Source of the DNA: Rotaria socialis
Taxonomy: Eukaryota
DNA: 64,000 bases
Assembly (NCBI GenBank): GCA_905331295.1
Contig: CAJNYD010000529.1
Span: 1 to 64,000, forward strand
Reading direction: 5' to 3'
The translations under genes and the position numbers were made by a program. Shown here piece by piece: positions 17,586-63,229 of this stretch (within the stretch, counting starts at the first letter, position 1; every line of letters begins with the position of its first letter). The notes beneath the pieces are model-generated. The model saw only the letters and a list, made by a program, of their open reading frames with translations, did no database searches and was not told the DNA's origin.

Positions 17586-18997
17586 TCAATTGAAGAAACT
17601 AGATTCGTTTTTGGATGTGGACAGAATTTTTTCGGCAGTTTTTAAATGAATTATATTGCTCACGATGACTGGAATTTTCATGTCAATATCCGAGAAAAGA
17701 CCAGAAACTTGAACTTTGATCAAGAGTTCATAACTCAAGACGATTCGTGCTCCAGTAAGCGAGGAAGGGTGTTCGATGGAGCATGTAGGTGGAATCGTGC
17801 GAGGTACAAATAATTCGAAACTTCTATGAAAATGTTCGCCACGAAATGATTGGGTTCCTTCCAAATCTCGATAAAGTATTTGCACTTGTTGCCGATTCAC
17901 ATAAAATAGTTGATCGCCTGGTATTCTCCTGGAGCTTATGTCCCAAATTTGAACAAGAGATGCCGACACGCCATATATAAGCACTTCATTCGAATTGTGT
18001 AAATCAATATCAAATAAGAATTTACTCTCAGTTACGACACGATTCTTCGGTAGAGTGACATGAATATGAACATTTCTATTTTTTTCTTGACTTTCGACTC
18101 TCGTTACATTTACAAACAGCGGTGAATTATGTCGAACATTAAGAAAAAAATTTTTGCAAACATTTTTCTTGTACCATTTGATTTGAGTCATTTCTATACG
18201 AATGAAATAGTGAACTAGTGGACTCTTCGGATCGGTTATGTTGATCGAAGGCAATAGGAGATGATCAACAAGGCCACTGAACGACCAAGTGTATCTACCG
18301 ATCGGTAGGGAAATCCCACTATCATTACCAATCGTGTGTGAAAGAAAATCTTGCTGGAAAAATACCATCCTATACGTCTTTGTTGATGTTGTTTTGCCTA
18401 TCTTCTCTGAAATGTTGTAGACAACCTCACCAACCAATATAATATTAATCTTCTTAAATTTTAATTCCGAATCATCACTATTGAAGAATTCGATTGTACC
18501 CGAAACAATCTCACCAGTGACATATTCAGTTTTGTCTTTATCAGTAAATTGACATTCTATACTCCATCCAGGTGGCAGAATGCTGACAAAATCTATAGCA
18601 TTAAAAAAGTATCAAAATATTTCAGAAAAGTCGACCTCAATGTGTGAATCTCAGATGTTAATCAAAGATAGACGCCATATAATTATAACAATTTACTTCG
18701 TAAAATTCAATTCTCTCAATTATACATAGGAAACTGTTTTCAACATGTGGAATTCGTATGTAGAACCGTTTTTTTCATACCTTTTGATTCTTCTCCGGAT
18801 AGATTAAATAAACCACTCCTGCCCACTGTAACCAAGACGCAACCAAGAATGGCTAACAGAATAATTACGATAAGCATAATTTTCGCACGCCTCGACATGC
18901 CCGATTCACCTGTAATATATGTTGGTTGATAAGTAACTAGGGTTGTGGGATGTCCATCGCAATTTGCAGACAGCATAGGTGATTGTACTGTATTCAT
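17586..18997 (-). CDS. Arrestin-fold (alpha-arrestin-like) protein with N-terminal transmembrane anchor, 407 aa, 2 exons
   Basis: Exons 18997-18781 and 18592-17586 join in phase 1 across a GT-AG intron. Arrestin-like motifs YVTGEIVSGTI, LVGEV, LPIGRYTWSF, LLPS, VHYFIR, IPPT, SYELLIKV, IPVIV. Hydrophobic IMLIVIILLAILGCVLVTV in exon 1. Confidence 0.75.
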
Positions 18998-20324
18998 TGT
19001 GTGTAGCTGTTAAATAAAATACTATTTTTTTTTCTATACACTAAAGAGGTTAAGATCTGCAGTACGGTGGTTATAGATTTATCTTGTCTCTCTGAAACAA
19101 ATTTTTAAAATTACCATGTATTGGATTTTCCATGAATTTTATTGTTATTTTTATGACCTCTGTCTTCTGTAGTTTAAAGTCCTACAGAACAATAATGAAC
19201 TCTCAATATTCGATCTTAGGATTGTTAAGAGAGTCTTTAGAGTTTATTACCTTTCAATCAGCCTTTTCTTCTAATTTTTCGTATATTGAACTTTTTTTGC
19301 AAATCGTACAATAGACGGCATCCGATTTGCACTAAATGTTTTGACATACGACTGTTACTCACCTAAATAATTTTGTCAAATTCAATAAAGATCATAAAAT
19401 ATTTTCACTGCCAATATATGAATTCTTCAGACGAGAAGGCTAAAGTTTGCAATCGAATCTTGATTCCAATCACTATTTGAGTCGTAGTATGATGCAGTAT
19501 TTTAGTTTGAAATTACTGAGTTATTTACAATCTATATTAAATATGAACATTTATCACGAAAAAATTCGAACTAAAATCTAGTCATTATCAAGCTTTTAAA
19601 TAAGAGAAAAATTTGGGGATCTTTTTTTTCGAATAACTCAACGCCATCTCTTAGTGATTATATTATGGTTTTCTTTCAATTCTTCTATTTTCCACCAATC
19701 CTTACAACTAACATTATAAGTTACCAATAACAATAACAATAGGATGTATGTATTATCTTACATGAAATAAGAGCAGAAACACACTGAATGACCAAGATTT
19801 TATGATAGATATTGTAGCATGATATTACGATTTGAATCTTTAGTACAATGAAACCTGGTGATAAACATGGAGTAGTAAAAACAGTGTTTTATTTTGCTAC
19901 GTGGAATAAAGAAATGAGCTGAGACAAATTGCTTATAAAAAAGTAGGAGAGTAATTGTTAAAAAGCAAAAGTTATTACAATATTTGCGATTAGAGAATAA
20001 AGAAAAATGATTGAATGCAAGTGCAAAATGAGAATGTGAATGGTAAGGAAAGAAAAACAGAAAGAGACGCGAGTGACGAGGAGAGAAAAATATATGCATC
20101 GACTCAGACTGGAAATGAAAAGGAAACATGTGACGATAGCGGTAAAACTAGAATACATTAATGTTATTCTGCCAGAAGGAGGAGTGCACATTTTCGGACA
20201 ATCGAATATTTTTCGGATCTACTAAAAATAGTAGCAGCTATAGATAGGAACTATGCATTTAGGGCAATCCAAAATTAGTGAGGTAGGTCCCTTGTTTCCT
20301 CAAGCAGAGGTCGAAAAAAGTTTC

Positions 20325-20762: not shown

Positions 20763-23570
20763 ATGAACATGAATGCTCGTGAGTATTTTTTGAATAATGC
20801 TTTAATAGCAACAAGTTACTTGCCGTAAGTTTGGCAAACTTATTTTTCTATCGATTAGACAATTAGAAAAAATAAGTATAACATTACAGAAATATACATG
20901 TGATTTGGAATTTTTAAGATTCTGCTTGTTGTATGATCTAAGTCCAACTTTTATAAACATAAATATTTGGAAAAAACAACTAAAAACACAACAACAATTT
21001 TTATCATTTAAACGATATCTCATACAACAAGAATATTATAATAGAAATAAAGATATACAGAAATATGAAAGACATATAAATGAATTAAAAAAACATATTG
21101 AATCGGTTGTAAGTAGAATAGATTATGTTAAAATTGAAAAATAATTATAAGCTCGACAGAGTCAAACGTGAACGTGATAAGATAAAAGAAAATCATAAGA
21201 AAAAACTAGAAAAACTTAATAAAGGTCCTATAGGACAAAATTATGAAGCAACACATAATAAACTTGTTCATAATGTATCAACATACGTTCTCACTCCAGC
21301 TGAAGAGAGACTTCTATGTCGTGGCTGGAATTTTTGTATAAAAAGTAAAATTACAAAAAATGGATGACTTTAAAACGGATATGGAGATTAATGGAACAAA
21401 GCTCGAATCTCATTGTCATCCTTCTGTTTTCTCAACAGTGTGTCATCATCTACATGATTATGCAAATAAATATATTAGAAATATAAATAATAATAATATT
21501 CGTAATATTAGCGATGAAGAATTTCAGGCTATAAAAACATTGCGTAATAATAAACAAATCATAATAAGTCGTGCCGATAAAAGCAATGCCATCGTAGTGA
21601 TGGATAAAAAAGACTGCATAGAAAAAAATAATAATATTCTTCAATTAAAACAGTTTCAACATACAACTAGATCTCTACAAAAAGAGAAAGAAGAAGAAAT
21701 GAACAAATATCTTCGAGAGTTATATAAAGAAAATACTATAACTAAAGAACTATTTTATAGTATCAGGTCTACATGTTCGTCGATAGCTTGCATGTATGGA
21801 CAACCAAAAATCCATAAAAATGGTTATCCGCTAAGACCTATTATATCATCAATAGGGAGTTATAACTACGAACTCTCTAAATATCTAGCAGGCTTAATAA
21901 AAGCCAATCGCGAAAATAAGTCATTTTCATATATAAAAGACTCATTTGATCTCGTCAAACAAATAAGAGAAATAACTAACGTTCAACAACAAGTAATGTG
22001 TAGCTTCGACGTCGACGCATTATACACGAACGTACCAGTAAAAGAGGCCATAGACATAGTTGTAGAGTCTATGGGAAAATCAAAAACAATTAAAAACACA
22101 CCTTTTAATAAAAAACAATTTAAAAAATTGCTTGAACTCGCCGTTTGTAATGTACCATTCCGCTTCATGAATGAGTACTATATACAATGCGATGGTGTTG
22201 CGATGGGGTCACCACTCGGACCTATACTCGCTGATATGTTCATGAGTAAACTAGCAAATAAACTTAATAAATTCTCAAAAAACAAACCACAGGTGTGGTT
22301 AAGATATGTCGATGACATACTATGTATTTTTGATAATAAACAGAGCATTGATAATGTTCTTGAAAGTATAAATAAGTGGCATAAGAATATAAGTTTTACA
22401 ATAGAAACAGAAATAGATAATACAATACATTTTCTAGATGTACTAATAATTAGAAATATGAACACTAATAAATATGATACAACTATCTATACAAAAACCA
22501 ACAAATACTAACTTATATCTACTCTACGAAAGTAATCAACCTAGAAAATACAAACTAGGTCTTATAAGAACTCTAACTATTAGGATATTATTGTTATGTT
22601 CTTCTGATAGATATTCTAATCAAGAACTAATAGACCTAGAAAAAACCCTAGGTGAAAACGGATATCCTAAACATATTATACGTAGAGGTATCAGAGAAGG
22701 AAAAATAATTACTACAAAAATCATTAATAAACATAAACATATAAATAATAATAATAATAATAGTAACAACAATAATACATCAATAAAAAAGAAAATATTT
22801 TTCACGTTATCATACTATGGACATGAATCCAATATACTTGCATCAAGGATGCAAAAGCTATGTAAAAGATTTCTACCTCATCTAGAAATCAGTATAACAC
22901 TAAAAAACACTAACACGCTTAAAAATATATTCTTGTCTATACAAAAAGGCGTAGACGAAGATAATAAACTTAAAAAACTAGTTTATCAAATACCATGTAA
23001 AAACTGTAATTACAGCTACATTGGAGAAACTAATAGAAGTTTAACCACGAGAATAAAAGAACATAAAGAAGATATAAGGAAAGTAAAAGAAAACTCGAAT
23101 ACAGCACAACATGTATTCGAAAAGAATCACTCCTTTGATTTTGAGAACACAAAAATCTTATCTTCAGAAACAAACTGGAAACGTAGAGTCATAAAAGAAA
23201 GTCTTTTCACACACTACAGTTATGGTAAGTCTTTAAACGAAGTAAAACATGATTTAAAAATTTTCGCTTAAAAATAACATAAAAATAAAACCGATATAAC
23301 TATATATTATTTATTTATTTATTTATATTTAAGAACTTAATATCACTTATATATTCAACCTCTAGATATAAAAATACCACACTCCTTCACTCAATAACTA
23401 TCCGATAAACAAAGAAGAAATACACCTACATATATTAATCATCATTTTTACAATTAATCACTATTTTTTCATCTAGTATCTCTATATCTTATATAAAAAT
23501 GTCTCTTATTCTTTCTCTTTGTAATATTCCTGATGATGGTAAGAGTTCTTGCCGAAAGCTTGAAATAAAA
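20763..23570 (+). mobile_element. Penelope-like retrotransposon (RT + GIY-YIG endonuclease), frameshifted
   Basis: RT motifs YGQPKIHK, PLRPIIS, SFDVDALYTNVP, GVAMGSPLGP, RYVDD (21360-22511). GIY-YIG VYQIPCKNCNYSYIGETNR...RIKEH (22474-23271). The ORF is split across frames near 21135, 21360 and 22495. Confidence 0.95.
23525..23567 (+). ncRNA. Minimal type I hammerhead ribozyme in the Penelope 3' terminal region
   Basis: Core CTGATGA (23530-23536), stem II GGTAAGA/TCTTGCC, GAAA (23554-23557), palindromic AAGCTT stem III, stem I TATTC/GAAATA, followed by AATAAA. Confidence 0.8.
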
Positions 23571-26680: not shown

Positions 26681-27708
26681 CAGTAACCGAACGCCTAGAT
26701 ATTAAAAAAATCAACACATACTGATGCATACTATGGATCACTCACCTCAACTACGTTAGCATAGAAAAATGCAAATAATGGCTGAGATGCTCCACTAAAT
26801 AAACATGCCGCACAACCAATGAATACGGTTTTCCATTCAGATCCATTCATTGATAACAGTCTTAACAGAACAAATCTTTGTATGAATGATTTTGAGCTTT
26901 TATAAATCATGAATGATCAATATTGATTGTTATTAGAATGTCACAAATATGTGTACCTTTTGCACATCAACAATAACTTGTGAATCGCTAATTAAACGAG
27001 ATCGTTCAGCTGCATAAGAGAAAATACAGAAGATATTAAATTCAATTAGTATTATAATATACACATGCCTATCGCCTCTTCTTCTTCCTCTTTTGCTTTT
27101 TGCATTTTGATTGGATCATCTTGATCATCATCAATTTTCTCCATTTGTTGTCGTTTGACCAACTCTTGATATTTTCCTCCTTCGTTCCCCATCAATGTGT
27201 CATGTGTACCTTGCTCAATCACATTTCCCTTGTCAAACACATATATTTGATCAGCATTTCGAATCGTAGTCAAACGATGAGCAATAACAATAGTTGTACG
27301 ACCTATATATTCATAATGATATGGTATCTATTCAAGAAACAGAAGAAAAAAACGAGCTCTACCTTTGCATGCTCGATCGAGTGCTTCTTGAACAATTTTT
27401 TCATTATTATTATCGAGTGCACTTGTTGCTTCATCCAATAAAAGAAACGTAGGCTTTTTTACAAGAGCTCGAGCTAATGCAATGCGTTGTTTTTCACCAC
27501 CACTTAACTGGATACCACGTTCTCCAACGAGTGTTTCATATTTCTAAATAAGATATCATAAAATAAACATACGTGCATAGATAGAGATAACTATTAAATG
27601 CAAACATCTGGTAATTGCATGATGAAATTATGTGCATTTGCTTCTCTTGCTGCTTCTTCAATTTCATCTTGTGTTGCATTTAATTTACCAAAACGAATAT
27701 TTTCATAG
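26680..27708 (-). pseudogene. ABCB1: ABCB1-like pseudogene, part 2 (rest of NBD1, linker, TMD2 start), inverted
   Basis: Minus strand: [55 protein letters not shown], linker, then EWKTVFIGCAACLFSGASQPLFA. Confidence 0.9.
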
Positions 27709-28118
27709 NNNNNNNNNNNNNNNNNNNNNNNNNNNNNNNNNNNNNNNNNNNNNNNNNNNNNNNNNNNNNNNNNNNNNNNNNNNNNNNNNNNNNNNNNNNN
27801 NNNNNNNNNNNNNNNNNNNNNNNNNNNNNNNNNNNNNNNNNNNNNNNNNNNNNNNNNNNNNNNNNNNNNNNNNNNNNNNNNNNNNNNNNNNNNNNNNNNN
27901 NNNNNNNNNNNNNNNNNNNNNNNNNNNNNNNNNNNNNNNNNNNNNNNNNNNNNNNNNNNNNNNNNNNNNNNNNNNNNNNNNNNNNNNNNNNNNNNNNNNN
28001 NNNNNNNNNNNNNNNNNNNNNNNNNNNNNNNNNNNNNNNNNNNNNNNNNNNNNNNNNNNNNNNNNNNNNNNNNNNNNNNNNNNNNNNNNNNNNNNNNNNN
28101 NNNNNNNNNNNNNNNNNN
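27709..28118. other. Assembly gap (410 N)
   Basis: Run of N. Confidence 1.
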
Positions 28119-28125
28119 GATCTAG

Positions 28126-29369: not shown

Positions 29370-29831
29370 TCATTGTTGATGCACCTCCCAATTGATGTTG
29401 ACACCATACCGTTGTAATTTCTGAGGACCAACAAATTTGAGAATGTAAAGATAGTCAGCATCCGAATATTGAACGAGAGTATCATCTGAAGTGGTCACAT
29501 CCGTCTCTTGATTCTTGTAGATGCGAAAAATATTATTGACACCAGCGCGAACTTCATGATTCTCTAGATATAGAATGGATGGCTTCTTCTCTACGGTGAA
29601 TGAAGAGACGATGTTGATTGTGAGATTGTGTAGCGGGTACGACCAGAAGAAGCGAACTGAGTCACAGTTCACAAATTTAGTGTCTTTAAGATTGAGTATT
29701 GAATCTTCACATCCATCCGTCATCACAGTAGCAGTGCATTGCGCAAAAGAACTGATGCGAGCCTGGCAAGAATCAGTAGCTTCACTTTTAACGACGATGC
29801 AGAGGTAGGCAATAATAACAGCGAGAAACAT
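29370..29831 (-). CDS. Small putative secreted protein of unknown family, 153 aa, single exon
   Basis: ATG at 29831, signal-peptide-like MFLAVIIAYLCIVVKSEA, four Cys in the mature N-terminal part, beta-rich-looking remainder. Confidence 0.65.
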   Translation of the reverse strand: MFLAVIIAYLCIVVKSEATDSCQARISSFAQCTATVMTDGCEDSILNLKDTKFVNCDSVRFFWSYPLHNLTINIVSSFTVEKKPSILYLENHEVRAGVNNIFRIYKNQETDVTTSDDTLVQYSDADYLYILKFVGPQKLQRYGVNINWEVHQQ

Positions 29832-31097
29832 GATAATGGCTGATATCACCGTTTGCGAATGAATGAATGAATGAATGATATAATGCAAGGATAGAATCCT
29901 TTAAGAGTAAAATAAAGAAGTGCATCCAGATGGACATAATCACACAGTGATTCAGACAATTGTGATCCCATTACATTTTGAGTGCAACTTCAAAAGTATA
30001 GTCATGCTGACAGAACAGCTTTAATTCATCGAATAAGAAGTGAAACCAAAAGAGAAATATTCAGAATATCAATAAAGAGGTACTTGAACACAAATGAGAT
30101 TTTATTCACTTTCAGCTGATGAGCTACGTGAAAAAGCATAATTGCGCAAGATGTATCTGTTTTTTTATTCTCCTTTTAAAAATAGGTTTTTTTGGTCAGT
30201 ATTATTTTTAAAAGAATTATATGTAAATGTTAACCCTAATTATTACATCTTTTTTGGCCCATTTTACCTAAAAATGGCTGAAAAATAAAATTCGAAAATA
30301 TTTTCTCCATTTTCCATCAATAATAAAATCGTTCTGATAGGCTCTTTTTTTCATTACCAAAGTTGTGTAGTTTTCTGGAGAGCAACTGATTACGCAGGCG
30401 CATCTTGAATACAGTTATTAAGAGTACCAATATTGAAGCTTGTTCAATCTAAAATATCACCACAATCATATACATTATTGCCGACATTGCCAGTATATTC
30501 ACACCTTCATCGATATTCAATATATGTTCTACAATTCATTTTCGCATGAATGTGTTAGTTTTAAGTTGAGAAAATGAAGTACAGAATAAGCAGATTTCAT
30601 TGTTTATCTATACATAGTTTGGGTGTCAACTAGCTAATGTAGTGGAGAGGCTCTCTTAGAAAACTCAATGAAAATGGTAAATTTCTCTGTAACTGCTGTG
30701 TCATATCGATTGTATCCACGCTAGGATGTTTAGTTTGGCAACTCTGATGCGAATTTTTTCTTAGAAACATGCCGCATGAAACTACCAATAAACACTGTTT
30801 CTTTCAAAAAATAATATATTTGGTTCTGCAATAATTTTCTCTTTTTCTTTAAAAAAAACATACAGATCTGTCGCATCATAAGTCTTTCTTGTGATAAAGA
30901 TATTTTTTATGTGGGATTCTCCCCATCGAATATATTTATTTAGAGAAGAGTAATTTACGATGACAGATAGCTTGTCAGCTGTAAAGCAGAAGTATATATG
31001 ACACTTCATTTTCTTCTCTCCTTACATTTGTGATACAGATTCATCAAAGTAACTATTGCATGAGTTTTCTGAGGAACAACACTAAAGCTAACGGATA

Positions 31098-31664: not shown

Positions 31665-32257
31665 ATGGCTCCAAAAACCATTTCTAACCATCTGTTAGAT
31701 GTGAGCGTCTTGTTAGTTTTTGCCATTGTTCTGGTAGGTAAAAGCATGAGAAGTTAAGATTCAGTCTACTTTGATTCGTCATTATTTATCAGGTCGTGTC
31801 AGCAACAAGTGAACAAGATAAGTGTTTGAAACCTTACGGCGATTCCTGTACAGATTCGACGCCGATGCCAACAAGAGCTGAAGGTTTAGGAGTTTATTAT
31901 GAAGAACCATGCTACGGAGTCGGATGTGGATTCTTTCGACCTTACTGCCGTCTTTGTTGGATTGATCCAAAAGCACCTGGTAGAATGGATCGTCCACAAT
32001 GTCCGCAATGTGTTATTGATCGAGAACGGAGAACAGACACTCAAGATCTACGATGTAAACTGCCTCCTGGAAACTCTTGTACCAGCGGGACGCCGAAAAA
32101 CACGAAAAAGGAAGGTTTAGGAGTTTATTATGAAAACCCATGCCATGGAGCCGGATGTGGATTCTTTCAACCTTACTGCCGTCTTTGTTGGATTGATCCA
32201 AAAGCACCTGGTAGAATGGATCGCCCACAGTGTCCAAAATGTGTAGCTAGCTTTTAA
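31665..32257 (+). CDS. Putative secreted protein with two tandem 8-Cys modules (~177 aa, 2 exons)
   Basis: Exon 31665-31733 (MAPKTISNHLLDVSVLLVFAIVL), 59-nt intron, exon 31793-32257 (VVSA-TSEQDKC...). Two repeats of C-x7-C-x11-GLGVYYExPCxGxGCGFFxPYCRLCWIDPKAPGRMDRPQCPxC. The start codon is less certain than the rest. Confidence 0.8.
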
Positions 32258-32894
32258 TGTCATGCTATTAAAGTTCAAATTTATTTCCCCTATGTAGCCC
32301 GTGACCTTATCAAACCTTTTTTTCTAAGGTACTTTACACATCACTGTTCCTTTTTAGTAGTACAAAAAATAAATTATGTATAATATAATGTGCGCGTGTG
32401 TAATACAGAGATAGTGAGAAAAAGAAAGCAATGGAAAACTGTCACAGACACCTTGTTTACATTATTTTTGGCTTCCTCCTACGATGGAGAGATGTAATTA
32501 AATTCACATTTATCCGTGAACATTTTGGTATGAAGAAACAAAAAATGCATATATAATAGAAGTATATTTTGTTACGTTTATAATATCTTTAACATCGTTT
32601 TGACGCATTTTTTCCCTTAAAACCTTTTCTCAAGCCCGGTTAGTTATCTGTTCAGTAAAAGTTTAAAAAAAATAGCGAGTTAATCCCGTAATTTTGAAAT
32701 TCTATCGTTCGTTGTGTTGATATTCTACTTTGCAAGTAAATGCAGTGAAATTATAAGGCAATCTCGTGCATCATCTATATTCTTTTATATTTCTCTTTGA
32801 AGACAGTTTTTTTCCTAGAGCAAATTGTACGATACGTTGCTTGTTTATCACAAAACTTCGTAAAAAGTCGTCTGATTTTTTTAATGTCAAAGCG

Positions 32895-33140
32895 TGTAAG
32901 ACTTCTTTTCTTATCGGTTGACTATTGTACCCCTTTATTGAAGAAAACACTCCATCATCTATATTGTATGAAAACTCAGACAGAGAGATAGTTAGTACAA
33001 GAGAGAAAAGGAGATAGAGAGAGTTAGTACACCGAACGATATATGTTCCTTTGACCTGTGACAAGAGACATGAAGATAAAACTGCATAGAAGAAGAATAA
33101 AAGTGATGATATGATCTCACGAAAGATGAAGATTATAACA
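32895..33140 (-). repeat. 3' LTR (246 bp), preceded on the minus strand by polypurine tract GGGAGAGG
   Basis: Direct repeat of 38322-38561; cctctccc at 33141-33148. Confidence 0.95.
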
Positions 33141-33412
33141 CCTCTCCCGTACAAAAAAAACGGTGCGCGCCCCGTGCATCGAACAATGATCAGTATAAAT
33201 AAGATAAAATGAAAACTTTTTTGTTTTTGTATTATAAGGTACTTCTTGTGATCTGTTAAAATTGAGAATTTGAGTTGCCACACCTCAATTTGATAATGAT
33301 AAGACGTTGCCACGTCGTCTTCGATCACTGTTGATAATCGTGATAAAATATGATTGTATCAGTTTGAATACTTTGTAATTAGACGACTCGTTCCATAACC
33401 CGTTGTAGTTGA

Positions 33413-36400
33413 CTAATATGAGCTCATGTAAATTTTCGTTTCATTATTTTGAACAAAATAATTTTGTTCACCTGTCTTATTGATCATTTGACAAGGTCTT
33501 ATCCGCCGTTCATCTAATTTTGTACGATTAGCACATACCTTCAGAAATACTAAGTCACCAATAGAATAAGACAAATCTTTGCGATGTTTGCCATATCGCA
33601 GTTTTGTTAATTGTTGTTGATGACGCATGTTTTCTTGAGCTTGTTTAAGAATTGTTCGTCGTGTTTTTTGTAAATATTTGAAAAATGTATGCGGTCGAGT
33701 TAAAGTGAAGTTGCTCGAGTTAGAATCAAATGAACTCTTTTGTCGTCGACCAAATGCAAGTTCATACGAAATAAAGCCAGTTGTAGCATGGATGCCTGTA
33801 TTGTAGACATAAACTACGGACTGAAGATAATCATCCCAGCCATCTTCGTTCTCATCATAATACTTTCCCAGCTGTGTACAAAACGTAGCATTAAAGTGCT
33901 CGACTTGGCCATTCGTTTGCGGATGATACGAAGCTGAAAATGAATGAGTAGTTTTTATCATTGTGGTAATTGTCTTCATTAATGTGTGGTTAAAATGTAC
34001 TCCGTTATCTGTAATAAGTCGTTCAGGTGCACCATGTATCATAATGAATTCGTTCATAATGAATTCAGCAGTAGCCTTAGCAGTATTATTTGAGATCGCT
34101 TTTGCTATCACGTACTTTGATAAATTGTCCGTAAGCACTATCACATATCGATTCCCCTGTGACGATGTGCGAACAGGACCCCAGAAATTCATATTTAATA
34201 CTTGAAATACATCTGTTGGTGGATCAAACGATTTAAGATGATCTGGTGTTTTGCTTTGTACGATATTGAATTTCCTGCATTTTTGACATGATGCGATGTA
34301 ATGTTCAATTGATTTGCGTATAATCAGGCCACTAAAATCGAGTATGAATTTTATGTAAAGTGCGTTGCACTCCGAAATACCCACTCAATGGATGATAATG
34401 AAATGCTTCTAATAGTGTGCTTAGCATTGACACAGGTAAATAAGGAAACGTGCTCTTGGTACTATCGTTTTTCTTGGTGATAAGACGAAATAAGATGTTG
34501 CTGTACAGTACATAGTTATCCATTTTCTGTTGGGCATGAATACGTGAAATAATAAGTTGAATATCAATATCATGATTTGTTCACTTTTGATCTTTTCCAA
34601 AGAAAAGTCTAAAATTGAGGTAGATTTAAGTAGAGGTGTTGATGTTTTCGGGTGATCTTCGGTCACGGTTGGTAATGACGAAGCACTTGTAGTTGCTTGT
34701 TTTGTTATAGATCGAGTGATGGCAGAAAGTGACTGTTGCTGATTGTCACTATCAATTGTTTCATATCGAGTAAGATAACCAGGACCGATATTGTCAATAC
34801 CACGCCTATACTTTATTTCAATAATTTGTGGTATTAAATCTTGTAAATATATCAACCAATTGTCAATTCTTTTGTTACCATAGTTTCGCTTCTTATGCAT
34901 ATTGACCAATGGCTTGTGATCTATTCCGATGGTGATTTCAGAATCTCCAATATAATTTCTCAATTTAGTAAGACACCAATAGATCGCTAAAGCTTCTTGT
35001 TCTGTGGTTGAATACCTACTTTAAATGTCATTCAGTAATCTGGATTTGCAGTAGCAAATCCTCAATCCATCAGTTGTATCTTGCTTGAGTACATCAGCAA
35101 TTCTTAGATCACTTGCATCTGTAGATAAGATAAATGGTACTGATCGGTTTGGAAAATCGAGGAATAGTGGTGCACTTGTCAGTATTGATTTAAATTTGTC
35201 GAAGGCATCTTGTTGTTGTTGTTCCCAACGAAATTCATTTCTTTTTGTTCTTGTCTTGTTAGTAACCTTGTGAATGGGTGCAGCAATTTTTGCGAAGTCT
35301 GGAATAAATTTACGATAATATCCAATTTTACCTATAAACTTGTTGGCTTGTGAAAGCGTTTTTGGCGGAGCAATATTAACAATTGCTTTGATCTTGTCTA
35401 ATGATGGTTCCAATTTGTCAGATGTAACAAAGTGACTTAAAAATTCGATCTTTTTGACGGCAATTGAGCATTTTGCTGGTGATACTTGCAAGTTGGCCTT
35501 GTGAAGTGTTGAGATAACGTCGGCCACGTGTTGTTTGTGTTCTTCGATTGTTTTCGAAAAAATCACAATATCATCAAGATAGACAACCACATAGTCCCAT
35601 CGTCCATTGGCCAATAATTCATTCATCACCCTTTGGAATGTTGGTGGAGCATTCATAAGACCTTGAGCAAGTACCGTAAATTCATAGAGGCCGTCTTGAG
35701 TGATTATAGCCGTCTTGGGTATATCGGATTTGTGTATTGGTATTTGGAAGTAACCGGACTTTAAATCTAATTTGGTGAAGTATTGATGCCCAGCCAAACG
35801 ATGAAGTAACTCTTCAGCTGATGGTTGAGGGTATGAGTCCTTTTTTGTGATTGAATTCAGTCGGCGGAAGTCAACCAGAAATCTATACGTACCATCCGGT
35901 TCCCTCTTTAATAACACTGGTGACGACCATGGCGAGTTTGACGGTCGAAGAATTCCTTGATCAAGTAACATTCCTACTTCCTGTTGAACTTCCTTTCTTT
36001 GTTGTACTGTCTTATAATATGGTCGAACACTTGTTGGTAGGTGATCACCAGTGTTGATTGTATGATGAATCTTGGTTTTTGCTCTGGTCATTTTTGAGTT
36101 GTCAAATGAACGTTCATTTTGTCGAAGGATGTTAGGAAAATCATTGCGATTGTATTTGTCACCAATGTGCATCACTAATTCTTGAAGAGTATTTTCGAGT
36201 AATGATAATTTTAATGATTCTTGTTGTTCATTTGTTTGTATTGAATTCAGTTGAGTACTTTGTTCTGTCATACTTGATTGCTTATCTGTGTTTAATATGC
36301 TATACATCATTTCATCATTTGACTGATAGTGTATTGATCCAAGTTTTTTAGTACTAGCTAGTTTGTAGATATTTTTGTTAGGATTATAAATGCAAACATA

Positions 36401-37021
36401 AAATGAGAAATCTTTAATTTCAACAAAAGCATCAGATACTTGAACATTTAACTTAGCACATTTTTTAATATCTGGTAAAAAAGAAACAAGATTAGCAGAT
36501 GAAATCGGTACATAAATTTTGACTATATGCTCATGATGTGGTAATAAAGTGATGCATTCAGCGAGACGGACATCGGCTGACCCTGAGTTCAAGAAAGGTG
36601 TTATCGTAATTCCGTATTTTGGATGATTTATTTCGACTTGTTTTTTACCGATATTCACGTTCACATTATTTGATTTGCACCAGTCCATACCAAGAATTAA
36701 ATTTGCACCTAATGAATCGACAATCAGAGCTGTAATGATGGTAGCAATATCATTGATAGTAATAGTTAATTCAACTGCACCGCTGACTATTATTTTGGTT
36801 TTTCCATCACCAAGTACTGCTGTTGTTTGAATTTGTTGAATTGGTGGATGTGTAATAAGATCAAGTTCAGTTTGTGATATAATTGATGTAGTAGCTCCCG
36901 TATCAAGCATCGCATGAATTAATGTACCATTAACGATTGTTCCAATTATTATAAGTGATGGGTGAGATTGTGGAAAGGAAGTATGACCATCACATACTCC
37001 CCCTAGTAGTTTTTTGAACAA
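33413..37021 (-). pseudogene. pol: Gypsy pol (protease, RT, RNase H, integrase) with a stop and frameshifts
   Basis: LDTGA, YLDD, TDAS, TDNG, PQTNGQVE. In-frame TAA at 35021-35023 inside RNase H; frame shifts near 34550 and 34340. Confidence 0.95.
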
Positions 37022-38259
37022 TTATATTGATAATGGTCCATACCACCGCATGACCAACATCCGCCATAGCTTTTCTCACTGTTGTTATGTTGAGGTTGAT
37101 GTGAAGCGTATGTTGTGTAATGCTGTTGATGTCGTGGTTGTTGTGACGAATTGTTGTATTGGTGTTGCGGAGAATTGTATTGCTGTTGTGGAATCGAAGA
37201 ATAAGGTTGTTGTTGGATGAAAGGTTGTTGTGTTGTTGTTGTTGCTATATGTCTACGATTATCAAAAGATATGGTAGCTCTCACCTGATTCTTTTCTTCT
37301 TCTTGCCATTTGTCATACTTAATAAGAGCTTGAAGAAATTCTTCCAAAGTGGCAGGACTTTTTAAATCCATATGTAGTTGAGCTGCTGCATTCAGTCCTT
37401 TAGTAAGATGTTTGAGTCGAGTTTCATCATCCATGTATTTATTAACCTTTGAACAAAGTCTTAGAACATTATGACAATAATCAATTGCTAATTCATTTGT
37501 TTGTCGTCGTCGATTGTAAAGCTTTTGTTCCAGTTGAAAATGATCGGTACCAGTTACAAGTTTAAAATAGGTTGTTAATTTATTTTTTAATGTTACCCAA
37601 TCATGAATTGTGTCCTTGTATGTATCATACCATAATTTGTCATTGCCCTTGAGAAGATCAATAACCACCGATAAACGTTGAGCATCGTCTAGTTGAACTT
37701 GATCACACTTGTTACTAAAGTTGTTGATCCAATCTGAGACTTCTTGTGAAGCTGATCCAGTGAATGGAGTAGAATCAAGAAGTTGATTGATTCTTTTAGA
37801 GTGTAGTTGTTTAACAGCTTGTTCCTTAAGACTAGACTCCATATTCATAATAACAGACGATGTTGACTGCCACAATGGAGCTGTTGTTAATGATGATGTT
37901 TTTGTTGGCAGTACATTGTGACATAACGCATTACTTACTTGTATAGCTTCAATTGTTTGAGTAAGATTGTTGATGGTGAACTGTTGTGTTGCCATCTCTT
38001 GGTTAATTTCTTTGTTTTCATCTAGAAGCAAATCTTGTTTAGCCAATAGTCGTTGCATTAATAACATCATTTTATTTGATTGTTGAATATCCATTTGTGC
38101 TTGTTTGTTTTCATCTTGATCATCCATTCGTATCTGTTGTTGTTCGATGTAGGATGGAGATGATCCTCGTCTTACTTTGTGTTCAGAATCAGTTAATGAC
38201 GAAAATTCTTGCTTCTGTGCCATGCTTCGAGTATGATGTTTTCGTTCGTTGTTGTTCAT
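37003..38259 (-). CDS. gag: Gypsy gag, 418 aa
   Basis: Open ORF, capsid-like region, Q-rich linker, CCHC knuckle CWSCGGMDHYQYNC. Confidence 0.92.
   Translation of the reverse strand: MNNNERKHHTRSMAQKQEFSSLTDSEHKVRRGSSPSYIEQQQIRMDDQDENKQAQMDIQQSNKMMLLMQRLLAKQDLLLDENKEINQEMATQQFTINNLTQTIEAIQVSNALCHNVLPTKTSSLTTAPLWQSTSSVIMNMESSLKEQAVKQLHSKRINQLLDSTPFTGSASQEVSDWINNFSNKCDQVQLDDAQRLSVVIDLLKGNDKLWYDTYKDTIHDWVTLKNKLTTYFKLVTGTDHFQLEQKLYNRRRQTNELAIDYCHNVLRLCSKVNKYMDDETRLKHLTKGLNAAAQLHMDLKSPATLEEFLQALIKYDKWQEEEKNQVRATISFDNRRHIATTTTQQPFIQQQPYSSIPQQQYNSPQHQYNNSSQQPRHQQHYTTYASHQPQHNNSEKSYGGCWSCGGMDHYQYNCSKNY
37009..37015 (-). promoter_or_regulatory. -1 ribosomal frameshift slippery site A AAA AAC (gag/pol)
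   Basis: gag reads TCA AAA AAC TAC TAG; pol is open in the -1 frame across the same bases. Confidence 0.8.
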
Positions 38260-38303
38260 GTACGACTCCGGATTACTTACTGTGTTGTTGAATTGTCAGT
38301 AAG

Positions 38304-38319
38304 ATCGGCTAGTGCACCA
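38304..38319 (-). promoter_or_regulatory. Primer binding site TGGTGCACTAGCCG (resembles the complement of a tRNA-Gly 3' end)
   Basis: Begins with TGG 2 nt inside the 5' LTR; tRNA identity is an inference. Confidence 0.7.
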
Positions 38320-38321
38320 AT

Positions 38322-38561
38322 TGTAAGACTTCTTTTCTTATCGGTTGACTATTGTACCCCTTTATTGAAGAAAACACTCCATCATCTATATTGTATGAAA
38401 ACTCAGACAGAGAGATAGTTAGTACAAGAGAGAAAGAGAGAGAGTTAGTACACCGAACAATATATGTTCCTTTGACCTGTGGCAAGAGATATGACGAGAA
38501 AACTGCATAGGAGAAGAATAGAAGTGATGATATGATCTTACGAATGATGAAGATAATAACA
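38322..38561 (-). repeat. 5' LTR (240 bp)
   Basis: Direct repeat of 32895-33140. Confidence 0.95.
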
Positions 38562-38640
38562 AAGCGTTCATATTTTCGCAAATTATTTGTCTCATGGCGA
38601 TGACAAGACTTTTTCGATAAAAAATACAATGTAAGTGAAT

Positions 38641-39718
38641 TCAACTGAATTTGCTTAAAACCACAGAAACGCACGGTGGACACTGTGGACGGTCCATTTT
38701 GCCAGGTGCCTTTGGATCAATCCAACAAAGACGGCAGTAAGGTCGAAAGAATCCACACCCAACTCCATAGCATGGTTCTTCATAATAAACTCCTAAACCT
38801 TCAGCTCTTGTTGGCATCGGCGTTGCCATTGTACAAGAGTTATCCCTAGGCAGTTTACATCGACCATCGTTGAGATCTAGTTTAGGTGGCGGGTGAGGGT
38901 CAGGGTCATTCGAAAAAAATAAATAAATTATCACCGCAATCGTTGCTGATATCATTAGAATAAAGCCAAGTGATAGGATAATTAAACGTTTCCGATTACA
39001 ATAAATTCCTCGAAATTTATTAATTCCAATATTGATGGAGTGCGGTCCAGAATGAATATTTTCTGCTTTTGTGACTGGTGTTACCATTGACATAACTGAT
39101 ATTGGAATATTTGTATTGTTAGTATTAATTTGATGAAGTTCCTGAGTCATATCTTGAGGAAAAAAATGGGTACTTATAAATTATTCACATGTACAATGTA
39201 AAATGAATTTCACACAAACATACGTGAAATATGTGTTGTAGCTATTTTATCATCTTCCATATCTTTCATCAAGTCATCGACAAAACTCGAACCACTACTC
39301 GTTGTAAACTGGAGACAGCGGCTGTTGCTGCTCGTATCAGCTGTAGAAGTCACATTATTGTCAGAGTTCGACGGTGAACGAGTTTTTAATATTCGTTGTT
39401 GAAGTTCTAAAAGATAGCAGACGAAACAGTTAGAAGTCTTTCATGAAACACACATATACCTCTTAAACTCTTCGTTGCTTGATAACATTTGATAGCTTCA
39501 AATGCTGCAATTAAATAGGTAAAGTTTTCTTCCGATATTTTTCTTCGATCGAAAAGTTGTTGAAATATGTTTAATGTGCCGCCAATTGTTGGATCGTCTA
39601 TAATACTTCGTTCAATATCTTCGCTCAAAAGAAACGATAGTTTTTTTCGTTCGTTAGCACCCAAATGATCAAGAATATCGATTAGTACTGTACGAAACTG
39701 TTTGTTTGGCTCATTCAT
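38641..39718 (-). CDS. Type II membrane protein: death effector domain, linker, TM helix, 8-Cys ectodomain; 317 aa, 3 exons
   Basis: Exons 39718-39460, 39406-39224 and 39152-38641 join through two phase-1 GT-AG introns (53 and 71 nt) into a 954-nt open frame. Exon 1 is DED-like (FRTVLIDILDHLGANERKKLSFLL...LNIFQQLFDRRKISEENFTYLIAAFEAI). TM LIILSLGFILMISATIAVIIYLFF follows RKR. The C-terminal module matches the 31665-32257 repeats. Confidence 0.85.
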
Positions 39719-51000: not shown

Positions 51001-54000
51001 ACGTTTCCTAGAATACATTTTCATTTGATATCATTATTGATTTGATAGTAAAATATTCTTTGAACCTATAAAGGAGTTTTTAATGTTCTGAAATCTTATA
51101 TCACTGCATATATCCATTTTGCATTGTATAGCTGTAATTAGGGGTGGGCCATTAACATTAATTTAATATTAATGTTAATGTTTCTCATTAACCATTAATA
51201 TTAATGTTTAATGTTTTCTGAGAAAAACTTAATTCATTAATATTAATGATTAATGAAAAGCATTAATATTAATTTTAAAATTAATGTTTCTCATTAATCA
51301 TTAATATTAGTGTCAATGTTTTCATTAAAATTAATGACTTAATATTAATGGTTAATGTTTTCATGAAAACATTAATATTAATGATTAATGAAAACATTAA
51401 TTTTAAAATTAATACTAATTTTTTTCATTAATCATTAAGATTAATGGCTAATAGAAGTCATTAATTAATGCCGTTAATTAAGTTCCGTTAAAAAAATGGT
51501 CCACCCCTAGCTGTAATTTAGAGCTTTATGCTCACGACCAAACATCGTATTATCTAGTTATCAATAGACTAAACTCACACAAGATATTCGCTTTAAGCTA
51601 ATTATTACTGGTATTTACCAGTCCATTTGAAGACTCACATTCAGATAGGGCGTATGAAGACTAAGACTCTCAGAATAAAAGATATCGTGTTAGTCGATAA
51701 GCATTTAAAATTTCTTTTAAACAGGCTCATCAAATAGACGACTACAAACCATTCATGGTCAAATTCATGAAACAAGCTCACAGAATATAGTTGTTTCTGT
51801 TGATCGTATTTTTGCTGGATCAGCACGGTTGGATGGCGATGCAATTGGTAAGGAAAATTTGTTTTGCTTTGTTTCAATATTCTCATTCTTTATTTGCTCA
51901 GTGGCATTCGTTCGTAGTCTATGTCATGTATCCATGGATGAATTATATTCAACTCCACCTCGAATGTTTAGTTTATTAAAAGTTGTTGAAATATCCTATT
52001 ATAATATGGGACGTATTCGACTTACATGGTCAAGAATATGGGAAATTGTTGGTGACCATTTTAATAAAGTTTGTTACATATTGTTGATCAACATTACTTT
52101 ACTCGATTTTTATTCATATAGGCTGCTTGTCATCCATTGCAAGACGTCTCATTTTTTGCAGTTGATTCTTTACGACAGTTATCGATGAAATTTCTTGAAA
52201 AAGGCGAATTTCCGAATTTTCGCTTTCAAAAAGAATTTCTTAAACCATTTGAATTGATCATGAAAAAAAATTCGTACGTGTTTATTTCATTTTATTGTAT
52301 TTTTTCGCATATAGTTACTCTTATTTTGAATAGATCACCAACTATGCGTGATATGGTTGTTCGTTGCATAACACATTTTGTTGATGCACAAGCAAAAAAT
52401 ATTCGGTCTGGTTGGAAAAATATATTTAGTGTTTTTCAAATGGCTGCTACAGATACAGATGTGCAAATTGTTGAATTAGCTTTTCAAACATGTACACTTA
52501 TTGTTGGTATGCTATTTAATTCGAATTTTCTATTTAACGAGCTTAGAAATTTTCCTTACAATTGCGAACGTTAGTTATCTATCTAAGAGATCCATAACAA
52601 CGGGAAAGACTTCGAAATAAGTATTCTCAAGATATGCAGTGATTTTCATAGGGCTCATTTATAAATCTGGGAAATAATCTCTGCCATTGAATTTTTACTC
52701 GCCGTGGAATATGAGACGAGGTAATATGATTATATTGGTCCTTATTAGGTAGCTATAATCTGCTTGAGATTGAGGATCATGTGAGTGTTCGACATTTACA
52801 TTTTATTTCGAAAAAGATTGTACTACCAAGCTTTTTTCGTGTTTTCTATTACAATAGATGTGGTTTTTGATCGTTATTTTGCATCAATATTGGACAGTTT
52901 TCAAGATGCTGTTAAATGTTTATCAGAATTTGCTTGCAATGTCTCGTTTACTGATACATCCATGGAAGCCATACGATTAATTAGGCAATGTGCGAAATAT
53001 GTGGCTGAAAAACCACAAGTAATATTTTTTTAAATTTAGCTTTCAAAAACTGAAACTTAACTTTTATAGATTTTTCGTGAACATGCTGGAGAAGATCTAA
53101 TCAATGTACCCGAAGAAGATCGTATTTGGGTTAAAGGATGGTTTCCTATTCTCTTTGAATTATCATGTATTATTAATCGGTGTAAACTTGATGTGAGAAC
53201 AAGGTAACGTTATTCTAAATAATTTAAGCTTGGGAATTTTTCAACTTAAAATTCTAAGGGAATTAACATTTCAATGTTTAAATAGTAATAAAAAGAAAAA
53301 AGAGTTTTGAATTCGATCAATGAGGAAAAAAATCTTGATTGCATATTGATTTTATTTTCCAGGGCATTAACCGTCATGTTTGAAATAATGAAAAGTTATG
53401 GTGAAAGTTTTACTCAGAATTGGTGGATTGATTTATTCAATGTTGTTTTTCGTATTTTCGATAATATGAAACTGCCTGATACACAAGTAGAGGTATATCC
53501 GAAATTTCTTCTTTTCTTCTTCGGATTATCATTGAATTTAATCTGCCAATAGAAAATTGAATGGATGACAACAACTTGTAATCATGCACTCTATGCTATT
53601 GTTGATGTATTCACACAGTACTACGATGTTATACCTGAATCGGTTGTTAAAGATTTATATGCTCAATTGAAATGGTGTATTAATCAAAGTAAAATATTTA
53701 TGTTGAAAAAACACAATTCATCTTATTGATATTTATAGATAATGAACAATTGGCAAGATCAGGAACGAATTGCCTAGAAAATTTTGTTATTGCTTGCGGT
53801 CAACATTTTACTCCGAAGATATGGGAAAAATTATGTACTTGTATATTAGGAGTGTTTCATTCAACGCTACCCCAAACGTAAGTTACTAAATCGAATCAGT
53901 TATTTCATGTTTGCTAATGATAGATCTAACCCAAGAGATTAAATTGATTGAAAATATTTATGTTCGTATAGCTTCAGACAGCGGTAAATAATTGCTGCAC

Positions 54001-56910: not shown

Positions 56911-59649
56911 ATGTTATCTCGAGCAACTCGTCCTTTGGTTCGGTCTGCATTCAGTCAGGTATAATCAAGTAAAAGAGAATAATTTTAATAATTGCTTTGT
57001 TTTTCTCGGTCTAGCTTTACTTACGTAGTCTATCGACAAGCAAATCAACAAAAAAATTTTATACTGATTTTAATGAAATTGTAGAAGATATTCCACATGG
57101 AGCAAAATTACTCGTAGGAGGTATTATTCTATTGATTTTGATATTTTTCCAAGATAGTATTTTCCTATTGGTTAAGGTTTTGGATTATGTGGTATTCCTG
57201 AAAGTTTAATTAAAGGTTTACTTAAAAATGGACAAAAAGATCTAATAATTGTATCAAATAACTGTGGTGTTGATGATTTTGGTCTTGGTTTACTATTAAA
57301 AACTAAACAGGTTAAATATTGACGAAAAGAAAATCATTTTTCTCCTAATATTATCGTTATCTTTATAAAGATTAAACGTATGATTTCTTCATACGTTGGT
57401 GAAAATGCAGAATTCGAACGACAATACTTAAGTATGTTTTTATTTTCATTGATATTTCTAATTCATGATTGGTTCACTCGTTTGTATGTAGACGGTGAGC
57501 TCGAGGTTGAACTTACGCCACAAGTATAACATTCGAATCTTAATTTTTTCTTCAAATAAATATTGAAATTCTATAGGGAACTCTAGCAGAAAAAATCCGA
57601 GCTGGTGGTGCTGGTATTCCAGCTTTTTTTACACCAACTGGTTTCGGTACACTAATTCAACAAGGTGGTGCACCAATAAAATATGATAAAAATACTAAAC
57701 GACCAATTATTGAAAGTCCAATGAAAGAGGTATGCAAAAACAAATACCTTCCTTTGATTGAATCTTTATCTTTTTCTGTAAATAGACTCGACTTTATAAT
57801 GGTCGACCATACGTTTTAGAAGATGCTATTGTTGGCGATTTCGCTCTTGTAAAAGCTTGGAAAGCAGATCGTCTTGGAAATCTCATCTTTCAGTAAGCCT
57901 TAGAACAAATTTATCTTTTTCTAATTTTCTTATTAAAAAATTATTTTAGAAAATCTGCTCGAAATTTCAATTCAACCATGTGCAAAGCCGCACGATGTAC
58001 AATTGCTGAAGTTGAAGAAATCGTTGAAGTTGGAGATTTGAAACCTGACGAAATTCATATACCAAATATATTTGTGCATCGTATTATTGTAGGCGATAAG
58101 CATGAAAAGCGTATTGAGGTAATTAAATATATATTCATCAGAACGAGAAGAAGAAAAACAAAGTAACTGATGATTTGATTGTTTACATAGCGTCGAACTG
58201 TACGTAAACGTAATCCAACAGCAACTACATCATCTGCAGCACCATCGAAAAAGAAGAAAGACGACACTTCTCGAGAACGTATTATTCGACGAGCAGCTTT
58301 AGAATTTACCGATGGAATGTATGCGAATTTAGGCATAGGTAAAGACAATAATAAGAAAATTAGATTTAAAATACAACTGTGTCTGTTCCTAATTAGGAAT
58401 ACCAATGTTGGCTTCAAATTATATTCCAGATGGTTTAACAGTACATCTGCAAAGTGAAAATGGAATTTTAGGTTTGGTAAGTTTGTTTGTTTGAATGAAC
58501 GATATCGAGAATACTGAAGCTTTTATAGCAGAAAACTTTTAAGATTTTAGAAAATCACGTATTAAAGCTATGGAAAGTTGTGAGTACTATTCGTGCGAAA
58601 TCGTTCCTATCTCGACACGTACTTTCTCAATATGTTCCTTCATTGAATCCGTCAGTAATGTAATCAGGAAATAATTGAAAGATCAATAATGTCTATCACA
58701 GTTTGTGCAAGAGACAAGTGTGTCTGAAGGTCTAACCTTATACACCAACGTTCTGCTTCAGTCTAAATAAATTGTGACAATATTTTATGTAGCCTTGTGC
58801 AGTTGTATTCTAGGCCACGTTGTGCTAAAAATTAAAACAAAATTGAGCGTAGCATAAAATATCTGTGTTTTAAGTAATTGCCAGTTCTAAGTAATCAATG
58901 GGATTTGTAAACAAATTTTCTCCTCTATTAATATGGAATGTTAAAAATAACGTGCTGCTAGGACCTTAAACATGTTGTTTTTTGACAAAAAAATACATAT
59001 TCTCTTCTATTTCTAGGGCCCATTTCCATATGAAGGTGAAGAAGATCCAGATCTAATCAATGCTGGCAAAGAAACTGTCACTGTTCTTCCTGGAGCATCC
59101 TTTTTCTCGAGCGATGATTCGTTTGCTATGATTCGTGGTGGCCATATTGATTTAACTATACTTGGTGCTATGCAAGTCTCACGTTATGGTGATGTGGCTA
59201 ATTGGATGATTCCAGGCAAATTAATTAAAGGTATGGGCGGTGCTATGGATTTAGTTGGTAGTGGTCGAACTAAAGTTGTTGTGACAATGGAACACAATGC
59301 CAAAGTAAAGAACACTTCTATCTCTCATGCTCTTATTATTTTCTGTTGGCATAGGATGGTTCATCGAAATTTTTTGAATCATGCACATTACCATTGACAG
59401 GCAAAGGAGTTGTCGATCTGATTATCACAGAAAAATGTGTCTTTGAAGTTGATCCAGAAAAAGGTTTGACACTGACGGAAATTGCTGATGGGTTTTCAGT
59501 AGAAGATATTGTGAAATGTACCGGTTGTGCCATTAATGTAAATATGAATAATGTTTAAATGATAATGTCAATAATTGCTTTTTGTTTTGTTTTAGATTTC
59601 TAACAGCCTGAAACCAATGCAACAAGTGCAAATTAATCGCCATAATTAA
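56911..59649 (+). CDS. OXCT1: Succinyl-CoA:3-ketoacid CoA transferase (SCOT), mitochondrial, multi-exon
   Basis: Arg/Ser-rich presequence [56 protein letters not shown], catalytic [21 protein letters not shown]. Confidence 0.97.
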
Positions 59650-62241: not shown

Positions 62242-63229
62242 ATGCTTGAAAGCAATCCGATACCAATAACAACGATTGGTGGTGGTTTCACTAACATCAA
62301 TACACCATCAACAAGCAATATAATAGGTAGCATTTTTACATCCGAACAAGTTGCCTGTGTATGCGAAGTACTTCAGCAAAGTAATGATATCCAACGGCTC
62401 GGTAAGACTTTTACAATATAAATATTTAACAAATATCTTAAATAAGAAGAAGAAAAACAACAACAACAACAACTCTACTTCTTTTTTTCTTCTTCTGCAG
62501 GTGATTTTTTATGGACATTACCAACATACGAACATTTTCATAATCATGAAAGCGTTGTAAAAGCTAAGGCAGTTGTTGCATTTCGTCGTGGAAACTATCG
62601 TGAACTCTACAATATACTTGAACGCTATCAATTCGCACCATGTAGTCATCCGCAGTTGCAACAATTATGGTTACAAGCGCATTACAATGAAGCTGAAAAA
62701 CTACGTGGTAGACCGCTCGGTGCTGTTGGAAAATATCGTGTTCGACGAAAATTTCCTTTGCCACGAACAATATGGGATGGTGAAGAAACAAGTTATTGTT
62801 TTAAAGAAAAGTCACGTAATATTTTACGCGACTGGTATTTACATAATCCATATCCATCTCCAAGAGAAAAACGTGAATTAGCTGAAGCAACTACTCTAAC
62901 AACAACACAAGTATCAAATTGGTTTAAAAATCGACGACAACGAGACCGAGCATCGGAAACAAATGATAGGTTGGTTGTTATTATGAGTGAATTTAAAATT
63001 AATAAAAATTTCCTTCGGTTTTTGTAGAAAAACAATCGATATGAGCCCTTCACATAATGATGATAATTCATTAGATGATCTTGGATCAACAGGCAGTGAA
63101 CCAACGACGAAAGGTTTTCAAGTTGATTACAACAATCAACAGTATCATTATCACCATCATCATATGAAACCAACAACAACAGATATTATTGATTCTGGAG
63201 GAATGTTTAAAGATTATCATTCACTTTAA
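62242..63229 (+). CDS. SIX1/2: SIX homeobox protein, Six1/2 (sine oculis) class, 3 exons
   Basis: Six domain [12 protein letters not shown]...[26 protein letters not shown], class-diagnostic ETSY, homeodomain [10 protein letters not shown]; introns 62402-62500 and 62970-63027. Confidence 0.95.

Follow-up and report, generated by a model that had tools for sequence, protein, structure and literature searches.

Arrestin-fold proteins (visual, beta- and alpha-arrestins and VPS26) are regarded as cytosolic adaptors, and according to the available parts of two papers (PMC2515105, PMC9105457) the characterised members all act at the cytosolic face. A gene of the bdelloid rotifer Rotaria socialis raises the question of whether the fold can also be placed on the opposite side of the membrane. 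The gene lies on the minus strand of the window, the whole stretch of 64,000 nucleotides that was analysed, and joins a predicted transmembrane helix to a tandem pair of arrestin domains. It seems fairly likely that its product is an alpha-arrestin-fold protein whose N-terminal helix inserts as type II, with the sandwich forming a luminal or extracellular ligand-binding ectodomain. If this is true, the arrestin fold would be a general Ig-like binding scaffold serving on either side of the membrane, and a relocation by exchange of the N-terminus (Met-Gly, short leader, anchor) with loss of PPxY could be traced through three states in one animal class. The features of the gene are the following.

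18781..18997, minus strand: coding exon 1 (217 nt, residues 1-72), with a 39-residue N-terminal tail, the putative signal-anchor helix and the start of the stalk; from the joined frame, with a start Met common to P0002 and P0121.
18881..18892, minus strand: basic flank RRAK, residues 36-39, on the N-terminal side of the helix; from the sequence.
18821..18880, minus strand: predicted transmembrane helix, residues 40-59; 20 uncharged hydrophobic residues, best Kyte-Doolittle 19-window 3.34, AlphaFold2 helix 36-59.
18853..18909, minus strand: possible alternative in-frame 57-nt intron within exon 1, whose removal gives the 388-aa NCBI model P0010; from NCBI models.
18593..18780, minus strand: intron of 188 nt, GT-AG, phase 1, starting with GTATGA and ending with TAG; from the joined frame, with four stops in the exon-2 frame.
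17586..18592, minus strand: coding exon 2 (1007 nt), an open frame with residues 73-407 and the stop.
18132..18566, minus strand: Arrestin N domain, residues 82-226, including the clade-marker Cys86 (18554-18552); Pfam PF00339 E 4e-7 and AlphaFold2 strands.
18102..18110, minus strand: sequon N234, in the hinge between the two domains, with the highest conservation among the six; present in 7/7 anchored-clade and 2/10 leader-bearing rows.
17658..18098, minus strand: Arrestin C domain, residues 238-384; Pfam PF02752 E 3e-15 and the AlphaFold2 model.
17589..17651, minus strand: C-terminal tail, residues 387-407, without PPxY; from the sequence.

The in-frame join at 18781/18592 proposed by the first-pass annotation agrees with the gene models and with homology. 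Once joined, the two exons give 407 codons with zero internal stops, and the product is identical to P0008, the NCBI R. socialis model, although agreement with a gene model is no proof of junction reads. According to the available part of PMC7943196, BRAKER with hints from RNA-seq was used to annotate published assemblies of R. socialis and R. magnacalcarata, which may not be the source of the models used here. A T-rich, acceptor-like stretch on the minus strand (19006-19025) ends with CAG 9 nt ahead of the start codon and suggests a 5' UTR intron preceded by an unseen upstream exon.

The product carries the full arrestin N and C fold, as had been claimed, since both Pfam domains pass their curated cut-offs (PF00339 with 30.5 bits against 24.9, PF02752 with 57.1 against 27.7). 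The AlphaFold2 model built on a 94-sequence alignment (pLDDT 83.0, pTM 0.73) was the one used, a 5-sequence model (pLDDT 48) having been set aside as poor, and in it the helix (36-59) is followed by a stalk of low confidence and by two beta-sandwiches (82-226 and 238-384). Such N and C beta-sandwiches in tandem define the arrestin clan, and the model aligns with VPS26, ARRD-6 and beta-arrestins with Z scores of 17-20. The closest fold by VIA-align is VPS26 (Z 20.2, rmsd 3.5 Å over 267 residues, 14% identity) and the top Foldseek match is C. elegans ARRD-6 (E 4e-16), which is also the single match below E 0.1 of a PDB sequence search (7usy, E 0.018); the ESM Atlas returned arrestin/Vps26 clusters only, below 0.9. 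The alpha type is distinguished by the lack of helix I in the N domain, as given in the available text of PMC2515105, and no helix is found in residues 82-226 of the model. Judged by the predicted fold and the missing helix I, the protein derives from the alpha-arrestins. It is not filed as a member of that class because both the PPxY tail and solubility are missing: no [LP]PxY occurs anywhere in the 407-aa protein, as the first-pass annotation had said of the tail, and a transmembrane segment is predicted, which the 388-aa model would shorten. Nor does it match the visual and beta-arrestins, which are marked by helix I in the N domain and by a clathrin-binding tail: its N-domain helix is absent, and its tail has 21 residues. 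The VPS26 family PF03643 gave no match at E 0.01 for P0008, and below-cut-off matches for P0005 and P0034.

Comparison with known systems delimits what is unusual in this architecture. The alpha-arrestins (human ARRDC1-5 and TXNIP, the yeast ARTs, C. elegans ARRD-6) share Arrestin_N, Arrestin_C and the lack of an N-domain helix; unlike them, the rotifer protein has an N-terminal transmembrane helix, no PPxY tail and a predicted luminal or extracellular position. In the available text of PMC9605866, ARRD-6 is soluble and located at the cytoplasmic face of TMC-1. VPS26A, B and C, of retromer and retriever, are likewise without a PPxY tail. The Dictyostelium Adc proteins, as described in the accessible portion of PMC2699828, also combine an arrestin core with an added membrane-targeting part (FYVE or C2); these amoebozoan arrestins are peripheral and cytosolic, whereas the helix of the rotifer protein is integral and its predicted orientation is away from the cytosol. 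The nearest relatives without a hydrophobic leader are bdelloid arrestins known as database models only (P0024 of Rotaria sp. Silwood2, P0028 of R. magnacalcarata, P0034 of A. ricciae), with the same core at 24-30% identity. Unlike the anchored group, this bdelloid type has Met-Gly with nearby Ser/Thr and often a PPxY end, and lacks both Cys86 and a sequon excess. The UniRef names of these records are only those of arrestin domain-containing proteins and, judging by the records with a named taxon, the family seems to be restricted to bdelloids. Among the papers found, which were in part accessible, none dealt with a transmembrane, signal-peptide-bearing or secreted arrestin; supplementary secretome tables could list such proteins.

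The helix described by the first-pass annotation is present, but MSRRAK corresponds to residues 34-39 and is not the start of the protein, and the uncharged span is 20 rather than 19 residues long. A search for anchored orthologs, which had been recommended, was successful: the anchor is also present in R. magnacalcarata (P0002, 83% identical), in five A. steineri proteins (P0005, P0017 and P0190-P0192, the first two 36-38% identical to P0008) and in the metagenome protein P0121. The helix is thus conserved in 8 sequences and two bdelloid genera. P0121 corresponds to exon 1 and P0003 (66% identical) to exon 2, the latter starting with the same read-through of the acceptor; each is recorded with a 4181-bp contig, which would fit the presence of this two-exon gene in a third species. 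A match of exon 1 to Calcyon (E 0.016, below the cut-off) was rejected as one between hydrophobic helices. In P0005 the predicted cytosolic tail, residues 1-80, is expanded by four Pro/Tyr/Gln-rich repeats, and the other anchored members have many tyrosines in their tails too.

The orientation of the helix is the point on which the reading turns. Type II proteins have an internal hydrophobic helix, no cleaved signal and more positive charge on the N-terminal side, a rule that was applied, with its scale, to the charge differences across the helix (C-terminal minus N-terminal flank). The rotifer protein has this arrangement, and the difference is negative in 4 of the 8 anchored sequences (-3 in P0008 and P0002, -2 in P0121, -5 in P0005), while it is +1, +1, +1 and 0 in four A. 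steineri paralogs. The lack of a clear bias in these four would suit the opposite insertion of a real helix, with the N-terminus outside and the arrestin domains in the cytosol; the protein would then be a tethered alpha-arrestin whose helix had replaced a myristoyl anchor and which bound receptor tails without Nedd4. That every characterised arrestin-fold protein acts at the cytosolic face speaks for it, and so do the relatives that start with Met-Gly, by which membrane tethering is probably ancestral. However, each of the 8 anchored sequences has a cluster of basic residues immediately before the helix, and in this orientation an N-terminal tail of 32-86 residues would need to be translocated although no signal peptide precedes it. 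The further evidence on the two orientations comes from the relatives of the protein.

A profile search of 1.84 billion representatives gave 154 proteins at E <=0.001. The best 150 of these 154, together with four close homologs, made up 154 rows, 75 of which span both domains and are at most 450 aa long. Among the matches listed, these 75 comprise 7 rows of the anchored clade (3 without N-terminus), 10 with a short leader, 42 other rotifer-like and 13 ARRDC-like; the remaining three were left out, one as a near copy, one for its long branch and one because it had two matched stretches. The labels rotifer-like, ARRDC-like and cytosolic were judged from similarity and motifs, taxa being recorded for some rows only.

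The groups differ at both ends of the protein. A Met-Gly start is found in 35 of the 42 rotifer-like rows, with Ser, Thr or Cys 4-5 residues further on in 34, and in none of the 17 anchored or leader-bearing rows (3 of which lack the N-terminus). We take Met-Gly in this Ser/Thr context to be a myristoylation-like motif, and rotifers would apparently hold a large expansion of lipid-anchored arrestins. The full motif occurs in 0/13 ARRDC-like rows; examples of Met-Gly are P0024, P0028, P0034 and P0039. At the other end, an [LP]PxY tail is present in 20/42 rotifer-like rows against 0/17 anchored or leader-bearing ones, or in 20/33 against 0/10 when tails of at least 10 residues are considered. 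As an argument for topology the missing PPxY is weaker than first stated, since 13 of these 33 presumed cytosolic relatives lack it too.

The closest relatives after the anchored clade carry conserved signal-peptide-like leaders, and the more distant rotifer-type arrestins are of the Met-Gly/PPxY kind. A short hydrophobic core with small residues after it is typical of signal peptides. In 14 of 15 leaders (the fifteenth, P0031, being misplaced in this comparison) the best 9-window hydrophobicity is 1.9-3.0, and small residues follow. Leader-bearing proteins with a recorded taxon are P0025 and P0030 of A. steineri, P0031 and P0035 of A. ricciae and the partial P0032 of R. socialis. Because the leaders end where the acceptor of the R. 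socialis gene sits, they were tested against intron read-through. The window contains 374 acceptor-like sites, 23 of which would yield a Met-started, open and hydrophobic leader; the motif Q[YHC] occurs in 11/14 leaders against 2/57 control read-throughs, and 46 of 91 leader pairs score above the 95th percentile of the control. By this comparison the leaders are most likely coding and conserved. That gene callers had read through T-rich ends of introns and so produced them is unlikely for the group, though single members may still be such; one probable read-through, P0180, is also hydrophobic at the leader position. The leaders of these sister proteins look like export signals and are too short for a membrane span, which argues against a cytosol-facing anchor in the R. 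socialis protein.

The anchored clade is well delimited, with a support of 99 in the quick tree and of 100/99 in the core-only tree and the 23-row tree. In the core-only tree (39 of the 75 rows) it falls, together with the leader-bearing and four Met-Gly-type rows, in a clade supported at 97/93. A clade made up of anchored and leader-bearing rows alone is weak, with a support of 91 in the quick tree, where leader columns are included, and of 81/50 from the core only; it was not recovered in the 23-row tree without the Cys86 column. In AU tests on these 23 rows without that column, neither the grouping of anchored with leader-bearing rows (p 0.34) nor that of anchored with the four Met-Gly-type rows (p 0.18) was rejected. 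From the alignments, the anchored and leader-bearing forms may plausibly share a single origin, for which Cys86 is the best marker: it is present in 16/17 anchored or leader-bearing rows and in 1/42 rotifer-like ones.

The first-pass annotation had read six N-glycosylation sequons as a sign of an outward position. All six are present in P0008 (N65, N132, N162, N190, N234 and N401), but in this single protein they do not clearly exceed expectation (6 against 3.2 in shuffles, p 0.088). The conservation check that had been recommended gave a divided answer: N234 is kept in all seven anchored-clade rows, while the R. magnacalcarata ortholog P0002 lacks N65 and N190. At the level of the group there is an excess, the cores of 15 anchored or leader-bearing rows having 65 sequons against 40.8 in shuffles (p 0.0005), and 13 such rows of 25-51% identity having 55 against 33.6 in local shuffles (1.64-fold, p 0.001). 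The 11 nearest Met-Gly-type rows have 27 core sequons against 28.1, and all 42 presumed cytosolic rotifer-like rows 107 against 104 in shuffles or 100 in local shuffles. However, the sequon test is not specific, since the ARRDC-like set of 13 rows, presumed to be cytosolic, has more sequons than expected as well (64 against 41, 1.56-fold, p 0.001; 52 against 36.5 when one column shared by 11/13 rows is masked). This second excess would favour the cytosolic orientation, and against it stands the fact that sequon excess and cysteine loss together separate the anchored and leader-bearing group from its nearest relatives; cysteines per core are fewer in the group (p 0.013).

Taken together, a cytosol-facing arrestin is unlikely, and type II insertion with the sandwich in the lumen or outside the cell, as first proposed, is the best-supported reading, because the helix is conserved in two genera, its sisters bear leaders, and the group lacks Met-Gly and PPxY, has fewer cysteines and has more sequons than its shuffles. 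From these traits we judge the outward topology likely, and, given that topology, a role in binding at the surface has an even chance of being right.

Two further properties of the cores bear on what an outward-facing arrestin could be. A second cysteine (column 221) is found in 6/10 leader-bearing rows against 0/55 others and is absent from P0008 and the anchored clade; Cys86 and Cys221, which belong to the first and the last strand of the N domain, may form a disulfide in the leader-bearing members. P0030 of A. steineri has a further pair of cysteines (columns 293 and 353) in edge loops of the C domain, a disulfide candidate. The median net charge of the leader-bearing cores is +13.5 against +1, with the anchored clade mildly basic at +4. 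The strongly basic leader-bearing cores hint at polyanionic ligands.

A different objection concerns the helix itself. The exon-1 model of the first-pass annotation stands as regards the 407-aa join, but a rival in-frame 57-nt GT-AG piece (18909-18853) was overlooked, whose loss would take away the basic flank and roughly half of the helix. If the 388-aa form were the main product, the anchor would be mostly gone and the protein would be secreted through the residual hydrophobic stretch or be soluble; both variants may exist. In R. socialis the piece is spliced out in 3 of 6 cluster members (6/15 contig records), its donor (ACAG/GTGAAT) and acceptor (TCTGTTAG/CC) are canonical, and the stretch left after its removal is still leader-like, with a 9-window hydrophobicity of 2.9 as in the leaders of paralogs. 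The segment also diverges faster than its upstream flank, 11/19 residues being identical to P0002 against 26/29 in the preceding residues. On the other hand, all four R. magnacalcarata cluster members read through it, the A. steineri models retain the full helix, and P0121 keeps the segment at its full 19 codons with no stop and with 10/19 identities, its matching exon 2 (P0003) being itself only 66% identical. Hence the shorter form is improbable as the main product, although as an optional intron the 57-nt piece may serve to switch the protein between anchored and secreted forms.

It is very improbable that the gene model is wrong, with another first exon, or that the locus is an unexpressed decaying paralog and the anchored arrestin an artefact of annotation: the support for the junction consists of gene predictions and homology, but the same exon join is predicted in R. 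socialis and R. magnacalcarata models, A. steineri likewise has an anchor ahead of the fold, both exons show open and conserved frames, the intron holds four in-frame stops, and near the exon-2 acceptor there is no Met able to start a complete arrestin.

The type II reading can be set in an evolutionary scheme. The ancestors would have been cytosolic adaptors, held at the membrane by N-myristoylation of Met-Gly and recruiting Nedd4-type ligases via PPxY. Their N-terminus would have been exchanged for an ER-targeting segment, a short and probably cleaved leader in most paralogs and, in the anchored clade, an uncleaved anchor on an exon of its own. PPxY, useless in the lumen, would have been lost, free cysteines would have fallen in number and sequons would have been gained. 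In the present protein the helix would act as an uncleaved signal anchor, leaving the 39-residue tail in the cytosol while stalk and sandwich enter the ER lumen and become N-glycosylated; the anchored protein would then proceed to the cell surface or to a secretory or endosomal compartment, and the leader-bearing paralogs would be secreted. Cytosolic arrestins bind receptor tails with their concave beta-sheets. Outside the cytosol the same sheets would bind an external ligand, the fold acting as an Ig-like binding module, and the ligands of the basic leader-bearing paralogs might be polyanions such as glycans or microbial surfaces. Put at its widest, the proposal is that bdelloids possess a family of secreted and type II anchored arrestins, derived from myristoylated PPxY adaptors by a swap of the N-terminus, with glycans, some with a disulfide, and with Ig-like extracellular binding, in which the anchor came from a new first exon whose acceptor lies where the leader of the paralogs ends and which holds the optional 57-nt intron; we give it a little better than an even chance.

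The surroundings of the gene contain mobile elements and a few other reading frames. A Penelope-like retroelement (21342-23268, plus strand), with reverse transcriptase and GIY-YIG endonuclease in two overlapping frames, lies about 2.3 kb upstream of the arrestin gene. An LTR retrotransposon (32774-39180, minus strand) has its protease, reverse transcriptase, RNase H and integrase spread over several frames and is therefore apparently broken. An assembly gap is located at about 27700-28120, and the whole window has 414 N. Two frames without a Pfam match (29373-29900, minus strand, and 31775-32254, plus strand) have a hydrophobic start followed by cysteines, like small secreted proteins. On the plus strand, 52122-52571, 59017-59394 and 62446-63024 correspond to a Sec7/BIG1-type ARF exchange factor, a CoA transferase and a SIX-family homeobox gene.
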